Assembly (NCBI GenBank): GCA_052168235.1
Contig: JBQLZK010000001.1
Span: 160,001-224,000, forward strand
Direction: 5' to 3'
DNA from: Thainema sp.
Lineage (GTDB): Bacteria; Cyanobacteriota; Cyanobacteriia; Phormidesmidales; Phormidesmidaceae
Length of the DNA: 64,000 nucleotides
Made by a program: the position numbers and the translations under genes. Below are positions 12,747-20,834 of the stretch, in pieces. The notes beneath the pieces were generated by a model, which saw only the letters and a program-made list of their open reading frames with translations, did not search any database and was not told where the DNA came from. How positions within the stretch are numbered: position 1 is the first letter of the stretch; every line of letters begins with the position of its first letter.

Positions 12747-15725
12747 TTACTTTGTCTCCATCCAGTTTTGCCCAGCATGAACTTCAACTCGCAGCGGTAC
12801 TTCTAGCTGCACCGCCGACTCCATTGCGGTCTGAATTTTAGGGCTGAGTTCGGCCCATTCATCGGGCGGAGCCTCAAACACCAGTTCATCATGCACCTGT
12901 AAGAGCAGACGAGTTTCATACGACTTTAGCAAATCTTGGATCTGCACCATCGCGATTTTGATGATGTCAGCGCTAGAACCTTGAATCGGCGCATTGGCCG
13001 CTGCTCGCAGCAGTCCGGCATCATAGCCACCGGGACGAATCGTTTGCAAGTCAATCTCATCTGGACTCTTACCCTGGAGCCGCTTTAGGCTACCGCTGGT
13101 GAAATTGAAATAGCGGCGACGACCTTTAATTGTTTCGACGTAGTTGTTTGCGATCGCATTTTTCTGCATTTGCTGCAAATAGCCGAATACCAACGGATAG
13201 CGTTCGTTAAAGCGGTCAATGAACATTTTGGCATCGGCCCGACTCACTCCGGCTTCACGGGCAAAGCGGGAAGCTCCCATGCCGTAAATGACGCCGAAGT
13301 TGATCGTTTTACCCAAGCGGCGCTCGTCCGGAGTAACGTCGTCTTTCTCGAACAGCAAGCGAGCCGTCAAGGCGTGAACATCGTCGTTGTTGCGGTACGT
13401 CTCAACCAAAACAGGCTCACCGCTCAGGTGGGCCAAAATCCGTAGCTCAATCTGAGAATAGTCGGCTGCAGCCAAAATCCAGCCCGGTTCCGGAATAAAC
13501 GCCGCCCGAATCTGGCGACTGAAGGCGGTGCGAATCGGAATGTTTTGCAGGTTGGGATTGGACGAAGACAGGCGGCCTGTGGTCGTAATCGCCTGATTGA
13601 AGTCGGTATGTACCCGTCCCGTTTTGGGATTGACTAGCTCCGGCAGCGCATCCACATAGGTCGATTTCAGTTTGGACAACGTGCGAAATTCCACCACCGC
13701 ATCCACGACTGGGTGATCGCCCTGCAGTTTCTCTAGCGTGGCGGCATCGGTAGAGTAGCCCGTCTTCATCTTGCGCGACTTGCGCTTATCCAGTCCCAGC
13801 TTGTCAAAGAACAATTCGCTCAACTGCTTGGGCGAACCGAGATTAAACGTCTCGCCAGCATCCTCATACGCCTGCTGCTCGATCTCTTGCAAGTTCTTTT
13901 CCAGTTGAACTGAAAGTTTACGCAAGTACTCTTGATCGATGCGAATGCCCGTATATTCCATGTCGGCCAGAACAGGCTCCAGCGGCAGCTCGATCTCATG
14001 CAGCAAGGCCGGAAACGCTTCGACCTGCTCCAGTTGCGCCTGCAAGAGGGGTACTAACCGATAAGTCAGATGGACATCCATGCCACAGTAGTTAGCCACC
14101 GCTGGGATACTGACATCGGCAATCGTTTGCTTTTTGGGGACGAGATCGGTGTAGCTCGTCACTTCTAACCCAAAATAGCGCAGCGCCATATCGGTGAGAT
14201 TATGGCTACTTTCGGGATTGATCACGTAGCTGGCCAGCATCGGGTCAAACACCACGCCCTTCAGGTCAACTCCCTGGCAGCGCAGCACCAGCCGATCAAA
14301 CTTAGCATTCTGAAACGCCTTGGGATAAGCAGGATCTTCTAAGAGCGATCGCAACCTCTCCAGCACCGTCTGCACGTCCAGAGATTTCCCGACAGTGTGA
14401 CCAACGGGAATATAGGCCATGTCCGCCGCTTCCTCACCCCAGCAGCAGCCGATGCCGACTAACTGAGCCTGCCAGGGGTCAAGCGCTGTCGTTTCCGTAT
14501 CCCAGGCCGTCGGGTGCTTCGGATCAGTGTGCTGCTTAAGGCGCTGAATCAGCTCGTCTAACTCGTCGGTTGTTCGAACAATCTGCGGCTTGATCGTGAC
14601 GTTTTCGTCAGGAGCAGCCTGAGCTTTGAGCGTATCTTCGAAGGTAAAGAACGAAATGTCGTCATCGTCAAAGAATGGAGATGGAGGTGCGATCGCGCTT
14701 TTTCCCTCAGCCCCACCACTGGTTTCTGTCGCCTCAACCTCACCACCAAAGGCGGTCTGAATTTTGCCAATCCGCTTAATAAAACTCTGAAACTCTAGGC
14801 GCTTAAACTCTTGGACAACCTTCGCTTCGTCAAAGCCCTCCAGCTTACACATCGTCAAGCTGACATCAATCGGTACGCCCAAGTGAATCTGCGCCATGTA
14901 CTGCGAGTGCATCGCATCGTCGTGCCCCTCTTCCAGCTTCTTGCGAGTCGCACCTTTAATTTGGTCAATCGACGCATAAATATTTTGCAGGGAGCCATAC
15001 TCGTCCAGCAGCTTGACCGCTGTTTTTTGCCCAATTCCTTTTACACCAGGAATATTATCTGAGGTGTCGCCACAGAGGGCCTTGTAATCCACCACCTGAT
15101 CGGGGCGAATGCCCAGCTTTTCCTGCACCTGCTGGGGGCCAAATTCCGTTACTCTGGCTCCAGCCCGATAGAGAGCGCTGCCCATATGCAGCACGGAAAT
15201 TCCCTGCTCTGGATCAATGAGCTGAAACATATCCTGGTCGCCGCTGAGGATTTTGACCCGATAGCCGTCCTGAGCGGCTTTACGCGCTGTTGTCCCCAGC
15301 ACGTCATCCGCTTCGTAGCCATCCAGCATCAGAATCGGCACCCGCATCAGCGTCAGCAGCGCTTGCAGGTTTTTGATATCTTCTCGAAAATCATCTGGCG
15401 CTTCTGGTCGATCTGCCTTGTATGTGACATCGACATCATGGCGAAATGTGGGGGCACTGGAGTCGAACGCTGCCGCCGCATAGTCTGGCCGCTCGGAATC
15501 CATCACGTCCATCAGCAGCGTTAAGAAGCCGTAGGTAGCACTAGTGGGAATGCCAGAAGAAGTTCGCAATCCACCATCCGGGCCACGAGAAAAGGCATAG
15601 TAGGCCCGGTAGGCCAGCGAATGGCCATCAACGAGGAGCAGCGTGGGTTTCTCAGTCGCTTTGGGTGTCGCGGTTTCAGGAGTTGAATCAGCCAAGATTA
15701 GATCGAACAGATGAGCAAACGACAT
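12747..15725 (-). CDS. polA: DNA polymerase I
   Basis: 5'-3' exonuclease (LLVDGHSLAYRAY, YEADD, GDTSDNIPGV), 3'-5' exonuclease-like domain, and polymerase motifs DYSQIELR, KTINFGVIYG, LLQVHDEL. Start uncertain (ATG 15725 or TTG 15695). Confidence 0.97.
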   Translation of the reverse strand: MSFAHLFDLILADSTPETATPKATEKPTLLLVDGHSLAYRAYYAFSRGPDGGLRTSSGIPTSATYGFLTLLMDVMDSERPDYAAAAFDSSAPTFRHDVDVTYKADRPEAPDDFREDIKNLQALLTLMRVPILMLDGYEADDVLGTTARKAAQDGYRVKILSGDQDMFQLIDPEQGISVLHMGSALYRAGARVTEFGPQQVQEKLGIRPDQVVDYKALCGDTSDNIPGVKGIGQKTAVKLLDEYGSLQNIYASIDQIKGATRKKLEEGHDDAMHSQYMAQIHLGVPIDVSLTMCKLEGFDEAKVVQEFKRLEFQSFIKRIGKIQTAFGGEVEATETSGGAEGKSAIAPPSPFFDDDDISFFTFEDTLKAQAAPDENVTIKPQIVRTTDELDELIQRLKQHTDPKHPTAWDTETTALDPWQAQLVGIGCCWGEEAADMAYIPVGHTVGKSLDVQTVLERLRSLLEDPAYPKAFQNAKFDRLVLRCQGVDLKGVVFDPMLASYVINPESSHNLTDMALRYFGLEVTSYTDLVPKKQTIADVSIPAVANYCGMDVHLTYRLVPLLQAQLEQVEAFPALLHEIELPLEPVLADMEYTGIRIDQEYLRKLSVQLEKNLQEIEQQAYEDAGETFNLGSPKQLSELFFDKLGLDKRKSRKMKTGYSTDAATLEKLQGDHPVVDAVVEFRTLSKLKSTYVDALPELVNPKTGRVHTDFNQAITTTGRLSSSNPNLQNIPIRTAFSRQIRAAFIPEPGWILAAADYSQIELRILAHLSGEPVLVETYRNNDDVHALTARLLFEKDDVTPDERRLGKTINFGVIYGMGASRFAREAGVSRADAKMFIDRFNERYPLVFGYLQQMQKNAIANNYVETIKGRRRYFNFTSGSLKRLQGKSPDEIDLQTIRPGGYDAGLLRAAANAPIQGSSADIIKIAMVQIQDLLKSYETRLLLQVHDELVFEAPPDEWAELSPKIQTAMESAVQLEVPLRVEVHAGQNWMETK

Positions 15726-15942
15726 CTCATTGTAACGAGCAATTGGCGATGCGGATGATGATGCAGTGGCGAGGCAATTTATTGCCTCGGTTAAATAGGA
15801 TATCAGCGCTGCACGAGGATGATCAGAATGAACACTGCGACGGCAATGGCAACATAGGGAAACCATTGGATTTGGCCTTATTGGCAGTTGCGGGCTTATG
15901 CTGTAAACGTGGTTGTTGAGATGAGGTTATATTTCATACCAC

Positions 15943-16212
15943 TCATGGAAAGTAGCGGTAGAATTCGCGGCGGTGTAGCACTCTCATGACTTCTAACGTG
16001 TCGCCGTTAAGTTCAACTCCAACCCGATAATCACCGACGCGAATGCGATATCGGTTGGGATAGCCTATTAATGCTTTTACATTAGGCAGACTTTGGAGGG
16101 ACTGAGCTGCTGGCAATGTTGTAAAGGCAAGCTCAAAGATTCGCTGATAAGCGGATGAGCCTTTGAGTTTTTTCAGATCTTTCAAAAAGAGCTTCCGATA
16201 CTCAATCTTCAA
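15943..16212 (-). CDS. RelE/ParE family toxin
   Basis: TTG start at 16212 overlaps the antitoxin stop (TTGA); 89 aa MKIEYRKLFLKDLKKL...YRIRVGDYRVG...RVLHRREFYRYFP. Confidence 0.9.
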   Translation of the reverse strand: MKIEYRKLFLKDLKKLKGSSAYQRIFELAFTTLPAAQSLQSLPNVKALIGYPNRYRIRVGDYRVGVELNGDTLEVMRVLHRREFYRYFP

Positions 16213-16442
16213 TCGGCTTCCTCCTCTGCCAAAAACTGAAGCGCATCTTCGCGGCTGAGCAGGGGCGATGTTTTGGCTTCGTCCATCGCTTTGTTTAAGC
16301 AGTAGTCTGCTAAATTTTCGGCGAGATTTTCGAGTGTTTCGTTGCCTTGGGGCATCAGTCGCTGCCAAAGCTCAATGGGAATGACAACGGCCTTGGGATT
16401 GCCGTCAGCGTCGGTGAGATAGTTGATGGCAGGGTTGGTCAT
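16209..16442 (-). CDS. Putative antitoxin of the RelE toxin
   Basis: 77-aa acidic protein (YLTDADGNPKAVVIPIELW...LSREDALQFL) coupled upstream of the toxin. Confidence 0.8.
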   Translation of the reverse strand: MTNPAINYLTDADGNPKAVVIPIELWQRLMPQGNETLENLAENLADYCLNKAMDEAKTSPLLSREDALQFLAEEEAD

Positions 16443-16467
16443 GGCCTAGCCTCCTTTATGTTTTACT

Positions 16468-19185
16468 CTAACGCTGCAAGATGATAATCAGAACACAGAC
16501 AATAATGGCGATGGCAATATAGGGGAGCCATTGGATCTGACCTTGGCGGGAATTGGACTTTGAGGAATAGGAAGAGTTGGGAAGGGATTTTTCCCACCAA
16601 TCAGGCCTTGAATCCTCTTTTTCCAGAAGAGTAGGCATTTTTCGAGGTTGCATCACAATAGTCTGATTGAGATTGTAAATCACTCGTTCACAATCCTTAA
16701 CTTCGTGGTCAAGTTGCAACTCTTCGTAAATTGCTTTTGCTGCTTCGAGATCTTGCTTCGCTGCCCATAGCTCGTCAATTCTGGCGTAAGCTAAAGCTCG
16801 GTTAAATAGATTGGCTGCTTGGCCCCTGGGTGTATCAATCCGTTTCGCAATTTTTAGAGATTGCCCATAGAATTCAATTGCTTTAACATGTTGACCTAAC
16901 GAACTATAAGCAAGGCCAAGATTACAAAGATTAGCAGCTTGCCCATGAAGATCACCAATCTTCCGATTAATTTCTAAGGCTTGTTTATGTAGGTTCACTG
17001 CTTTGTCATATTGGTGCAACGAATGATACGTACTGCCGAGACTACCAAGAGAAACAGCTTGACCATCAAGGTCACCAATCATCTGCGATATCTCTAAAGT
17101 CTGCTGATGCATTTCAATTGCTTTGTCATGCTGACCCAAGGAATTATAAGCAAAGCCAAGATCTCCAAGATTGGCTACTTTGCCTGTGAGATAACCAATT
17201 TCTTGATTAATTTCTAGGGCCTGCTTGTGCAGTGCAATTGCTTTGGTACATTTACCTAAGGAATAGTATGCAGAGCCAAGGTTGCCTAGATTTGTAGCTT
17301 GACCTTTGCGATGGCCGATCTTCTCCATTATTTCTAGGGCTTGCTCGTGCAGTTTAATTGCTTTATCGTATTGATCTAACAAGCGATAGCTTTGACCAAG
17401 ATTGCAAAGATTATGGGCTTGACCTTCAGCATGGCCAATTTCCTGCACGATTTCTAAAGCTTGCTCATGTAGCTCAACTGATCGAGCATATTCGCTTAAC
17501 TCCTTATAGACTATGCCGAGATTGCCTAGATTGGTAGCTTCCCCCCTACGATCTCCAACCTCTCGATGGATCTTTATAGCTTGCTCAAATAGCTCAATTG
17601 CTTTGTCATACTGGCTCAATGAGACATAAGCCACTCCAAGATTGTCGAAAGCAACAGCTTGGCTGTGAAGATCTCCAAGCTCCTGCTCAATTTCCAGAGC
17701 TTGCTTCTGTAGCTCAATTGATCTGGTGTACTGGCTTAATAAACGGTAGGCAAGGCCAAGGTTACCAAGAGCAGCGGCAAATTTCCGCCTTTTCTCCAGT
17801 GTTTTCGGTGGATAATTTTTCCAGGCTGTCGTCAGCCGTTCATAGGTATCTGCCCAAATGCGATAGTAACCTAGCAAGTCAAACCATTTAGTACATTCTG
17901 AGATCGCATCATAGGCAGCTTCATATTTGTCTAGCTCACAGTGATGGTGAAATACAGCTAAATAGTCATCTAAAAACTTCTCAATATCGTTTTGCTCTGG
18001 TTTTAGAGGTAAATAGTCAGTAAAGAACTCAACCGCCTTCTGATGTGCTCCAACCTCCAATTGTCGCTCTTGCAATGTCTTCTCGACAAACTGCCGCATC
18101 AGCGGATGCAATGTCCAGCGATCTTGTCGCTTCAGCAAAAAGCCCTGCATTTCTAATAGTTCCAGATCAGCCTCTGCCACCTGCGGCTGCATTGCCTGTG
18201 CCCGTTCCACATCAAACGGATTCTGATAAACCGACACCTCCAGCAGTGCCGTCTGCAACGTCTCCGATAACTGCTGCAACAAAAGCTGAAAAATCTCCTC
18301 AACCTTCGCTTCCGGATCACCCAAATTGTTCTCAAACAGCCTCTCAAAAAAGCTTAAATCCGTTTCTTTGAGTTGTCCCGCTGCCGTCTGATTCAGCCAA
18401 CTCGCCGCCAAATTCAACAACAACGGATGCCCATCTGCCAACGTCGAAAGCTGCTCTAAATTGACTTCTTCCGATGCAGAAATTTCCTGCTTCTGCAAAA
18501 ACGCCGCCCCTTCCTGCGGTGTAAACCCCGGCAAAACGTAACGAACCGAATCTTCAGCAACAAACCGATTCCGCGTCGTCACCAGAATCATGCTTTTCCG
18601 TCCCCGCTGTTGCCACTGCTCCAAAAATGCCTCAAACAATGGCCGATCTGCCGACTGCTCAATCTCCTCAAGCTGATCCATCACCAGCAGACAGCGGCGT
18701 TCACTCAGCCGATGAATTGTCTGAGTAATTAGCTCCTCGTCTGGAACTGACTCATCCGGAACTAAAAAGCCAATTTCTTGATGTACCCAGCGACCAAACG
18801 TACTGAAAGATGGCTGTTTTTGAAAATTGATCCACAGCGCATAGTCAAACCGCGCTTGAGTAACTTCATACGCCCAACACGCCAACAGCGACTTACCAAA
18901 ACCACCTGCTGCCACCACTTCAGTCAGCAGAACACGATCCGACTGTATCCGCTCCATCAAATTAGCTTGTGGCTGTGTCCGGTCAACCCATCTGTCCGGC
19001 TCACGCCTGGGTAGAATGGGATCAATTTCTGTAACCAGCACCGTGCGCTGAGACTCAATGCGATCGCCAAAATTTGCGGTTCCATGAAACTCACCAAATC
19101 CGTAGTTTCGGGAATTACCATGTCCTTCGATATCAATGTTGACCTTGTTAGGATCAAATTTCGGCGTTTTGTCTTGCCCAGTCAT
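16468..19185 (-). CDS. NLR-like STAND (NB-ARC) ATPase with TPR sensor, N-terminal amyloid-like motif and C-terminal hydrophobic tail
   Basis: Walker A AAGGFGKS, Walker B CLLVMDQLE, ILVTTR, DGHPLLL (GxP), WTLHPLMR (MHD-like); nine 40-aa TPRs; tail WLPYIAIAIIVCVLIIILQR. Confidence 0.9.
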   Translation of the reverse strand: MTGQDKTPKFDPNKVNIDIEGHGNSRNYGFGEFHGTANFGDRIESQRTVLVTEIDPILPRREPDRWVDRTQPQANLMERIQSDRVLLTEVVAAGGFGKSLLACWAYEVTQARFDYALWINFQKQPSFSTFGRWVHQEIGFLVPDESVPDEELITQTIHRLSERRCLLVMDQLEEIEQSADRPLFEAFLEQWQQRGRKSMILVTTRNRFVAEDSVRYVLPGFTPQEGAAFLQKQEISASEEVNLEQLSTLADGHPLLLNLAASWLNQTAAGQLKETDLSFFERLFENNLGDPEAKVEEIFQLLLQQLSETLQTALLEVSVYQNPFDVERAQAMQPQVAEADLELLEMQGFLLKRQDRWTLHPLMRQFVEKTLQERQLEVGAHQKAVEFFTDYLPLKPEQNDIEKFLDDYLAVFHHHCELDKYEAAYDAISECTKWFDLLGYYRIWADTYERLTTAWKNYPPKTLEKRRKFAAALGNLGLAYRLLSQYTRSIELQKQALEIEQELGDLHSQAVAFDNLGVAYVSLSQYDKAIELFEQAIKIHREVGDRRGEATNLGNLGIVYKELSEYARSVELHEQALEIVQEIGHAEGQAHNLCNLGQSYRLLDQYDKAIKLHEQALEIMEKIGHRKGQATNLGNLGSAYYSLGKCTKAIALHKQALEINQEIGYLTGKVANLGDLGFAYNSLGQHDKAIEMHQQTLEISQMIGDLDGQAVSLGSLGSTYHSLHQYDKAVNLHKQALEINRKIGDLHGQAANLCNLGLAYSSLGQHVKAIEFYGQSLKIAKRIDTPRGQAANLFNRALAYARIDELWAAKQDLEAAKAIYEELQLDHEVKDCERVIYNLNQTIVMQPRKMPTLLEKEDSRPDWWEKSLPNSSYSSKSNSRQGQIQWLPYIAIAIIVCVLIIILQR
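16705..17784 (-). repeat. 120-bp-period tandem repeat encoding 9 TPR units
   Basis: Recurring CAATTGCTTT / GCCAAG / ATTTCTA blocks at exact 120-nt spacing. Confidence 0.85.
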
Positions 19186-19274
19186 GACTTTGAATCACCA
19201 AAGTTTGCTGTCCCGTGAAATTCACCAAATCCATAATTTCGGGAATTATCGTGTCCCTCAATGTCAACGTTGAT
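19063..19274 (-). repeat. 81-bp direct repeat (19063-19143 and 19194-19274) encoding the shared signalling motif
   Basis: VNIDIEGHGNSRNYGFGEFHGTANFGD (receptor aa 15-41) versus INVDIEGHDNSRNYGFGEFHGTANFGD (effector C-terminus). Confidence 0.95.
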
Positions 19275-19631
19275 TTCCTTATGGACTTGGTTCTGCTGAC
19301 CAATGTTAATAATCTGTTGCGCCATCTGCTGCACATCCTCAGCAAACTGCTGATTCTCTGGATCTCTTAATTCATAAGCTAGACAAATCTCCAGTTCTTC
19401 TAGTGCAGCCTCAGACTTTTCTTGCTCTACTCGGGTGATGGCCTTTTCCATCCGCTTATTTCCAGTAAAGTGCTGCTTGATCCGTTTCCACAACGCCTCA
19501 ATCTGGCTACCCGCCGTCTTCAACATGGCTGGGGTCGTTATTTCTGCCGCTTTGCCTGCTGCTGCCTCAACAAACTTACTTGCCGCTATGGCAGCGATCC
19601 CCGCTGCCGTTAACGTGACTGGATCAGTCAT
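19182..19631 (-). CDS. Putative Bell/HeLL-like helical cell-death effector with C-terminal amyloid-like motif
   Basis: 149 aa: N-terminal Ala-rich hydrophobic helix MTDPVTLTAAGIAAIAASKFVE, helical core, Q/N-rich linker, and C-terminal motif shared with the downstream NLR. ATGA stop/start overlap at 19182-19185. Confidence 0.75.
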   Translation of the reverse strand: MTDPVTLTAAGIAAIAASKFVEAAAGKAAEITTPAMLKTAGSQIEALWKRIKQHFTGNKRMEKAITRVEQEKSEAALEELEICLAYELRDPENQQFAEDVQQMAQQIINIGQQNQVHKEINVDIEGHDNSRNYGFGEFHGTANFGDSKS

Positions 19632-19813
19632 AGTTTTATATCTAGGTAATGGCTACATTTGACTCATCCCAATTCTGCACAGAATTTCTCTCAGTGTCGA
19701 GAATCGAGGATTAAGCTAGTTGTTATATGTATAGACAAAGCCATTGATACGTTACGGCTAGCGCCTGACACATCCTACGAAGCTACAAAACTTAAAATCT
19801 GGGGAAACAGCAG

Positions 19814-20053
19814 ATGGCTGAAAACATCGTGAAAGTAGACATCTCATTTCAAGCCTTACTCACAGCCGTTCTATCTCTGGAACGCGCTGAGAAGCAGAAG
19901 CTTTGGGAATTCCTGGAAACAGATTTATTTCCAGACGAGGAGGATTCACCCGAAGATCTGGCTGAAATTGAAGCTGCTCGCGCCGACTATACAGCAGGTG
20001 ACTACATCACGTTTGATCAATACGCAGCAGAGCGAGCTAGCCGTTACGAATGA
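19814..20053 (+). CDS. Putative antitoxin
   Basis: 79-aa acidic protein ending AEIEAARADYTAGDYITFDQY; ATGA overlap with the downstream RelE-like gene. Confidence 0.75.
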   Translation: MAENIVKVDISFQALLTAVLSLERAEKQKLWEFLETDLFPDEEDSPEDLAEIEAARADYTAGDYITFDQYAAERASRYE

Positions 20054-20289
20054 CGTACACAATCATTACGCCTAAAGTTGTTCGAAAACAGCTAGATGAC
20101 TTGCCCGATGACGTTTATGAACGTATTGCTCCTAAGATCCAGCAGCTTGCAGAACATCCTCGCCCAGACGGGGTTACAAAGCTGAAAGGAACCGATCGCG
20201 AATATTGGGTTCGTTGTGAAATTGATGACAAGGAAAAAGTGATCTTGCTCTTATAGTGCAAGCACTAAAGAGATATCTACCGGAAGTAG
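20050..20289 (+). pseudogene. Degraded RelE/ParE family toxin
   Basis: The RelE start (MTYTIITPKVVRKQLDDLP...HPRPDGVTKLKG) is present, but the usual YRIRxGDYRV core appears collapsed to EYWVRCEIDD. In-frame stops TAG (20254) and TAA (20266) precede the residual tail CKH*RDIYRK*. Confidence 0.75.
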
Positions 20290-20298
20290 ACAAATTTC

Positions 20299-20325
20299 AA
20301 AAAGGACAGCCAAGATAGCTGTCCT
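20299..20325 (-). terminator. Rho-independent terminator after the ferredoxin gene
   Basis: AGGACAGC-7nt-GCTGTCCT with a T-run on the minus strand. Confidence 0.55.
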
Positions 20326-20345
20326 ATAGCATTCAATCTTTAGCC

Positions 20346-20834
20346 CTAAATATCTTTACTTTGCACAAAATAGGAGCCAATACTGAAGCTGGTATCGCTT
20401 TCCTCAAGCTGCTTTAAGACTGAACGGGTAATTAGCTTCTCTTTTTCGACCAGCACTTGACCTGTGATTGGGTGCAGCAAATCTTGCTCTGCCCGCCGTC
20501 CAATCAGCGCCTCAATATCCTTCAGCGAATTAATATACATACCGGGCGGTAGCTCCACCACCACGCCTTCGCCCTGCACCCGTGCCTGACAGGCCAAGCG
20601 CGAATTGGGCTTGCAGGTGGTAATCACTTCTAACGTACGCTGTTCCCGGCGGTTAATTGGGCTGAGCGAGCCCATGCCCTCTTTCACATAGATATGGCAG
20701 GTGGCGCACATACCCCGCCCACCACACTCTTTCAAAACGTCCAGTTCTTCATCCAGCAGCACAGAGAGCAGGTTGCCGTCAGTTGCGATCGCGGTTTCCT
20801 GAGCAATTGGTTCTAGTCGAACAATTTTAACCAT
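20346..20834 (-). CDS. 2Fe-2S ferredoxin-domain protein
   Basis: ECGGRGMCATCH...RLACQ cluster motif with a C-terminal extension. Confidence 0.9.
   Translation of the reverse strand: MVKIVRLEPIAQETAIATDGNLLSVLLDEELDVLKECGGRGMCATCHIYVKEGMGSLSPINRREQRTLEVITTCKPNSRLACQARVQGEGVVVELPPGMYINSLKDIEALIGRRAEQDLLHPITGQVLVEKEKLITRSVLKQLEESDTSFSIGSYFVQSKDI

Follow-up and report, generated by a model that had tools for sequence, protein, structure and literature searches.

We analysed a window of 64,000 nucleotides from the cyanobacterium Thainema sp. (GenBank assembly GCA_052168235.1, contig JBQLZK010000001.1, positions 160,001 to 224,000 of the forward strand), in which two overlapping genes, encoding a small effector and a large receptor, carry closely matched copies of a peptide tag at the ends that face each other. 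This tag has 27 residues and is rich in G, N and F. The effector (P0001) begins with M-T-D-P-V and has a hydrophobic N-terminal helix; the receptor (P0002) consists, in order, of the N-terminal motif, an NB-ARC domain, TPR repeats and a hydrophobic tail. The genes overlap in the four letters ATGA, which hold the stop codon of the effector and the start codon of the receptor; this suggests a single operon with coupled translation. The pair has the following features, in window coordinates.

19182..19631, minus strand: effector gene, open reading frame (ORF) of 149 residues, Bell-like helical protein
19194..19274, minus strand: effector-side motif copy, residues 120-146, three residues before the stop
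19182..19185, minus strand: ATGA overlap of 4 bp, effector stop codon and receptor start codon
16468..19185, minus strand: receptor gene, ORF of 905 residues, NLR-like STAND protein
19063..19143, minus strand: receptor-side motif copy, residues 15-41 of the receptor
18388..18942, minus strand: NB-ARC nucleotide-binding domain (Pfam), residues 82-266, P-loop GGFGKS
16636..17805, minus strand: TPR repeat region, approximately residues 461-850, several Pfam TPR families
16477..16530, minus strand: hydrophobic stretch of 18 residues at the receptor C-terminus (886-903), two residues before the end

Pfam recognises the NB-ARC domain at E 8.4e-10 (38.8 bits, cut-off 23.5) and TPR_12 at 6e-64 (212.6 bits). 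The receptor thus has the make-up of a STAND/NLR-like NTPase, an NB-ARC-type P-loop NTPase followed by a repeat sensor domain, with the TPR region as the presumed sensor.

Codon-level comparison of the two tag copies

The two tag copies are identical at 24 of 27 residues (89%) when compared codon by codon, and local alignment of the effector tail with the receptor N-terminus gives a score of 145 (z ~22.6), reached by none of 500 shuffles. A repeat search independently returned one 80-nt direct repeat, 83% identical, with a spacing of 131 nt. Across the 27 codons, 15 bases differ, of which 12 are synonymous third-position changes and three are replacements (I/V, V/I and D/G), reproducing exactly the count given in an earlier sequence-only reading of this locus. 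That reading had also described the similarity as ending abruptly at the motif edges, and the flanks agree: matching residues are encoded by 0 of 10 upstream codons and 0 of 3 downstream codons. With 24 of 27 residues identical, the tag is a shared motif as defined by Dyrka et al. 2020 (bioRxiv 10.1101/2020.01.06.895854), namely at least 15 residues common to the effector C-terminus and the receptor N-terminus.

Nei-Gojobori counting assigns 17 synonymous (S) and 64 non-synonymous (N) sites to the two copies. The proportion of synonymous sites that differ (pS) is 0.706, which is saturated, and its non-synonymous counterpart (pN) is 0.047, corresponding to substitution rates of dS ~2.1 and dN 0.048 and a dN/dS ratio (omega) of ~0.02. 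Since 20.6% of sites are synonymous, the neutral chance that at least 12 of 15 changes fall on them is 1.4e-6. Of the 24 identical residues, 12 use the same codon in both copies, compared with 10.25 +/- 2.3 expected under independent codon choice from the genome's own usage (estimated on 611,182 codons in long ORFs); such choice would yield at least 12 identical codons with a probability of 0.29. Because synonymous sites are saturated and codon identity stands at the independent-choice level, the DNA-level homology between the copies has been erased and only the peptide is conserved. The proposal that conservation acts on the protein and does not stem from a recent DNA duplication is therefore upheld. 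Most other loci display equal synonymous saturation between their tag copies. Judged from its codons, the tag is under purifying selection, and the low dN between the copies also indicates that the N-terminal 41 residues of the receptor are translated. As an annotation aid, dN/dS between two tag copies offers a simple and robust signature of such gene pairs.

The effector family and tag matching among relatives

Bell proteins are described, in the available text of Dyrka et al. 2020, as proteins of 120-140 residues whose N-terminal helix is hydrophobic and whose second or third residue is acidic. Their genes adjoin NB-ARC or NACHT genes with TPR or WD repeats, and 91% of the published Bell/NLR pairs are collinear and 42% overlapping. 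The window effector has 149 residues, with D as the third residue and a hydrophobic stretch at the N-terminus, and its NB-ARC/TPR partner lies within 5 kb on the same strand, with the 4-bp overlap. Residues M1 and P4 are invariant among 26 effector homologues. An AlphaFold2 model of the effector contains helices only, up to about residue 125, with a mean predicted local distance difference test score (pLDDT) of 74; residues 118-149 fall below pLDDT 50. One homologue, P0041 (E 2.1e-11), has a tail that differs, by eye, in one residue from a published Bell-side sample (PMC8086366 supplement). Size, helical model, N-terminal signature, gene context and the P0041 link point indirectly to membership of the Bell family, and we consider it likely that the window pair forms a Bell/BASS-NLR module of two genes, serving cell death or immunity.

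Searches of solved structures were carried out in three ways. Foldseek returned no match for the effector in the PDB at E <= 0.001, and MLKL executioner domains appeared only at E 4-7. A wide VIA-align comparison reached a Z of 5.0 at best, a value that carries no weight for a helical bundle, and a profile search against PDB sequences found nothing below E 0.2. As for the tag, the supplement clusters C12, C20, Ccya03 and Cnlr26 probably correspond to BASS7, 8, 9 and 10, because their set sizes are 17, 14, 38 and 7 (PMC8086366). Compared by eye with the seven Cnlr26 samples, the tag type of a sister pair on contig C17, described below, is identical at ~10 of 20 positions to one sample and the window tag at ~4 of 20. 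The tag family appears at best BASS10-like, with the window tag as a divergent offshoot.

Matches to the globular part of the effector occur in 54 of the 173 genomes of the order, the effector's own genome included. We extracted 53 Bell-like ORFs, 44 followed by a downstream ORF of at least 200 residues and nine without one; three of these nine lie within ~400 bases of a contig end. A tag common to both proteins (beyond 0 of 500 shuffles) is present in 30 of the 44 pairs. Pfam was run on 24 of the 44 downstream ORFs, namely those of the 10 nearest relatives, the window itself left aside, together with the 14 lacking a shared tag, and detected NB-ARC in 20 (E <= 1e-5). In most tagless receptors with NB-ARC, the domain begins at about residue 30, which leaves no room for a tag. 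The effector tails of tagless pairs must have another partner or none.

Covariation was assessed on the 11 closest loci with a downstream ORF, chosen by effector-domain score only. All 11 carry a significant shared tag. The cognate receptor is the best partner for seven of the 11 effectors, with the same count by column. The cognate scores sum to 949, compared with 577 +/- 63 for permuted partners, a value reached by 0 of 100000 permutations, although the loci are kin and not independent, so that this figure overstates the evidence. A related-locus search in genome contigs returned a single locus, from a Leptolyngbya metagenome-assembled genome (L015, the same record as L004), in which the receptor frame is short after the tag, with a downstream ORF of 201 residues. 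Two further receptors (L060 and L061) have frame breaks within the TPR repeats. Such short or broken frames may reflect gene decay or errors in the assembly of repeats.

Several observations weigh against reading the window pair as a Bell/BASS-NLR module with matched tags. The effector has no Pfam family above cut-off and no PADLOC match, neither resource having a Bell model, and no direct match ties it to the Bell family. Published BASS motifs, according to the available text of Dyrka et al. 2020, favour Q, N, G, V and I and are poor in K, P and L. The window tag contains five G, four N and three F, and no K, P or L; it also contains no Q and five acidic residues, which makes it less typical of that composition. 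Since 14 of the 44 pairs lack a shared tag, the tag is not obligatory for Bell/NLR neighbours. One of these 14 lies in the same genome (L035, contig C19, 842-3781, minus strand) and combines a 151-residue effector bearing a G/N/I-rich tail with an 808-residue NB-ARC/TPR receptor, whose NB-ARC starts at the N-terminus. The expectation that tags are more alike within a locus than between loci stands for seven of the 11 closest loci. It fails for the other four (by row L006, L009, L010 and L013), and when all 44 pairs are compared, the cognate comes first in no more than 15 rows and 14 columns. In the G-G-T-A-Y-I-G tag family, the effector side varies too little for matching to be specific to a pair. 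Pair-specific matching thus holds for the window locus and most of its close relatives, and is not a general rule.

A paralogous pair with a different tag

The same genome (7.5 Mb, 205 contigs) contains a sister module on contig C17, in which a 150-residue effector and an 868-residue NB-ARC/TPR receptor overlap. The two modules diverge unevenly along their length, as follows (window versus C17).

Effector globular part (1-118): 76% identity, dN 0.13, dS 1.34
Effector tag: 39% identity, dN 0.56
Receptor residues 42-460: 79% identity, dN 0.109, dS 0.64
Receptor tag: 52% identity, dN 0.39
TPR region: 52% identity, dN 0.37

Inside each pair the tags are matched at 24 of 27 residues; across the pairs, 10-12 of 27 are identical (37-44%). 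An alignment of the four tag sequences has 29 columns, of which 10 are invariant, 12 concerted (one shared 1-residue indel included) and seven mixed, a concerted column being one with agreement inside the window pair and inside the C17 pair but a difference between them. This different tag, equally well matched within its own pair, supports the earlier proposal that selection keeps the peptides of a pair matched to each other.

The C17-type tail is slow elsewhere: the ortholog P0004, from another source, is identical to it at 29 of 32 positions in the tail and 103 of 118 in the globular part. Between the window effector and C17, the tail is identical at 11 of 31 positions and the globular part at 90 of 118. 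In a three-member clade with support 92/87, the window effector sits on the long branch (0.24, versus 0.05 and 0.086). This could mean rapid change of the window tag or homogenisation of the backbones; under both, the genes of each pair moved together. Codon identity between the two receptors at conserved residues forms a mosaic. It peaks in the NB-ARC core (residues 151-340, 18166-18735), where 131 of 164 codons are identical and third-position identity reaches up to 0.93, and it amounts to 0.55-0.63 in the flanking parts and 0.52 in the tag cassette. This peak suggests gene conversion between the paralogous receptors that spared the tag and the TPR region.

These data bear on two ways of accounting for the likeness of the tags other than a mutual fit. 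It could be left over from a recent DNA duplication, or be maintained by ongoing gene conversion between the adjacent 81-bp direct repeats, which do lie close together and retain the overall nucleotide identity noted above; the C17 pair, moreover, shares somewhat more codons at its identical residues than expected (15 of 24 versus 9.8). We regard this explanation as very improbable in view of the 12 of 17 synonymous sites that differ, the chance-level codon identity, the strong excess of synonymous changes over the neutral expectation and the equal saturation at most other loci. The chance of at least 12 of 17 synonymous sites differing is 0.02 at the receptor's pS of 0.43 and 0.33 at the effector's pS of 0.62; conversion soon after duplication is weakly disfavoured. 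Alternatively, the tags may never touch, each being conserved separately for binding one third factor such as a chaperone, a protease or a membrane site. Low dN between the copies alone cannot separate a same optimum from a mutual fit, and the 14 pairs that keep an effector tail beside a tagless receptor also speak for separate conservation. Yet the two paralogous pairs, with different tags each matched within its pair across 12 concerted columns, would call for two co-diverged third factors, and for published BASS pairs, direct co-aggregation and mutual seeding are described in the available text of Dyrka et al. 2020. We judge the third-factor explanation to be improbable, and a direct fit between receptor and effector tags the better account.

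A separate question concerns the route, not the function, of the concerted change: one recombination may have swapped both tags at once, in place of stepwise compensatory change. Both tags lie inside a 212-bp stretch across the gene junction, which one recombination could replace, and paralog divergence rises abruptly at the borders of this cassette. Tag swapping does occur, since related Bell backbones carry quite different NYGRDQINIE-type tails (L068, L072-L077; P0025), and the best local match of the window tail among 103 relatives is P0007 of another subclade (score 64), not the paralog P0003 (49). On the other hand, no donor was found: a Bell search gave 28 matches among 74 candidates, none with the window tail, a search with receptor residues 1-60 returned the query alone, and none of 76 representatives (E <= 0.001) carries the window tail. 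The first half of the window tag also keeps C17-type residues (D-x-S-R ... F-G-E-F). Codon identity at paralog-conserved residues is 15 of 29 in the cassette and 97 of 165 in its flanks (Fisher p 0.54, at low power), which lends no support to a foreign cassette. A single swap of both tags seems rather unlikely to us. A class-wide search with P0007 matched 17 of 401 genomes; a closer relative of the tail type was absent, and none of the matches beat the own genome.

Bell globular domains up to 56% identical to P0007, a close effector homologue, carry the NYGRDQINIE-type tail (L068, L072-L077), which is probably BASS8. Five of these seven loci have a downstream ORF, and that ORF carries the matching tail type. 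Because related Bell domains, with their downstream ORFs, carry a different tail type, tag families appear from their sequences to be exchanged between related backbones.

Genomic setting, proposed mechanism and known systems

The hydrophobic tail of the receptor has a Kyte-Doolittle mean of 2.98 over its 18 residues, versus a maximum of 1.44 elsewhere in the protein, and looks like a tail anchor. Similar hydrophobic tails are found in the C17 paralog and in three of six orthologous receptors read to their ends (L056, L058 and L059), and a P-D-W-W-like patch precedes the tail in these receptors. The receptor L057 ends without one; the other two are those with broken frames.

The neighbours of the pair are polA (12747-15866), a ParE-like ORF, a ferredoxin-like ORF, a LysR regulator and a Ser/Thr kinase, so that the setting is chromosomal, with no obvious defence island. 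The ParE-toxin-like ORF (15943-16368, minus strand, Pfam 2.9e-9) lies between the receptor and polA and is overlapped by an ORF of 77 residues (16209-16442, minus strand) that could be its partner. Upstream of the effector gene, the opposite strand carries two small ORFs of 79 and 68 residues with a 4-bp overlap (19814-20256, plus strand), in which Pfam finds no family at E <= 0.001. An Rfam scan of 15800-20400 returned zero families, leaving an RNA-level reading of the repeat unsupported, and a promoter and terminator scan gave counts not above shuffles. Read mapping over 18900-19700 placed three short contig pieces, none covering either motif copy; one of them, ~85% alike, continues into sequence resembling the C17 paralog.

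By analogy with fungal, Streptomyces and Nostoc experiments and with Bab/Agp in E. coli, we infer amyloid templating between the receptor and effector tags. Binding of a ligand at the TPR region would drive NB-ARC oligomerisation; the clustered N-terminal tags of the receptors would nucleate a cross-beta fold, which would in turn template the effector tag; and the effector N-terminal helix, once released, would attack the membrane and kill the cell, for example on phage infection. The two peptides would be kept matched because the receptor tag needs to template the effector tag. A complex prediction for the effector tail (105-149) and receptor residues 1-50, both entered twice, gave no answer (score 0.03).

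This architecture is already known as the Bell/BASS-NLR type of Dyrka et al. 2020. According to the available text of that paper, the ~25-residue shared tag acts as a prion-forming domain, conversion running from the NLR side to the Bell side. The window pair resembles this type in its small effector, which is helical, hydrophobic in the N-terminal helix and acidic at position 3, in its collinear and overlapping NB-ARC/TPR gene, its cyanobacterial host, and its tag of similar length, G/N-rich and free of K, P and L, at the effector C-terminus and receptor N-terminus. It differs in that the exact tag variant of the window was found in no other protein searched, and in its within-pair identity of 89%, compared with 43-56% in the pairs for which Dyrka et al. 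2020 describe co-aggregation and seeding. The window receptor has a hydrophobic tail, whereas the available text of the same paper mentions no transmembrane part, tail or membrane anchor; nor does that text mention co-evolution, paralogs, crosstalk or synonymous change. A limited literature search found no dN/dS or paralog-insulation analysis of BASS pairs. What the present locus adds is the matched divergence of two paralogous pairs in one genome.

Other amyloid-signalling systems share parts of this plan. The HET-S/NWD2 and HRAM families, in the available text of Daskalov et al. 2015 (PMC4518210), also place an NLR gene side by side with a gene for a membrane-targeting effector and use a common amyloid motif. 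Unlike the window pair, the HET-S/NWD2 system is fungal and has a HeLo domain, a motif that occurs twice in the effector and a beta-solenoid; the HET-S/HRAM motif as given there has no sequence similarity to the window tag, and the two channels of the window are recent paralogs in one bacterial genome. Closer is Bab/Agp (BASS11) of E. coli (Ibarlosa et al. 2024, bioRxiv 10.1101/2024.11.07.622273), where, in the available text, a small Bell-related helical effector with an adjacent sensor and an amyloid motif of ~20 residues is activated via the shared motif in abortive infection. It likewise has a conserved N-terminal signature, of the M-E-P-I-S kind; that of the window effector is M-T-D-P-V. 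Motif-dependent cell death after phage infection is described for Bab/Agp. Bab/Agp lies in a prophage defence island, unlike the window pair with its polA, ParE-like and housekeeping-type neighbours.

As far as the available texts of these two sources go, NLR-type receptor/death-effector amyloid signalling has been established for fungi and, from 2024 on, for a single antiphage system of E. coli. For the fungal HRAMs, Daskalov et al. 2015 had described, in the text available, receptor and effector motifs that co-evolve, along with the idea of classes that do not cross-seed and the hypothesis that tag divergence insulates paralogous channels. In the present genome, diverged tags together with diverged TPR regions could provide two separate signalling channels per cell. 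We tentatively propose, as a possibility, that after duplication, or during homogenisation of the backbones, the window tag was re-coded in lock-step on both genes, giving two mutually insulated amyloid death-signalling channels, with the receptors tail-anchored in the membrane so that seeding would happen where the effector acts. The cross-pair identity of 37-44% counts against insulation, as it borders the range of published pairs that still cross-seed, and channel insulation is here a hypothesis.

Sister modules with 76-79% identical backbones, and with tags matched at 89% within and 37-44% across, provide material for the question of templating specificity, and the paralog contrast and the putative tail anchor of the receptor are leads. 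If the proposal is true, the two modules would make up a minimal natural pair, the specificity barrier of their amyloid templating being set by roughly a dozen positions.

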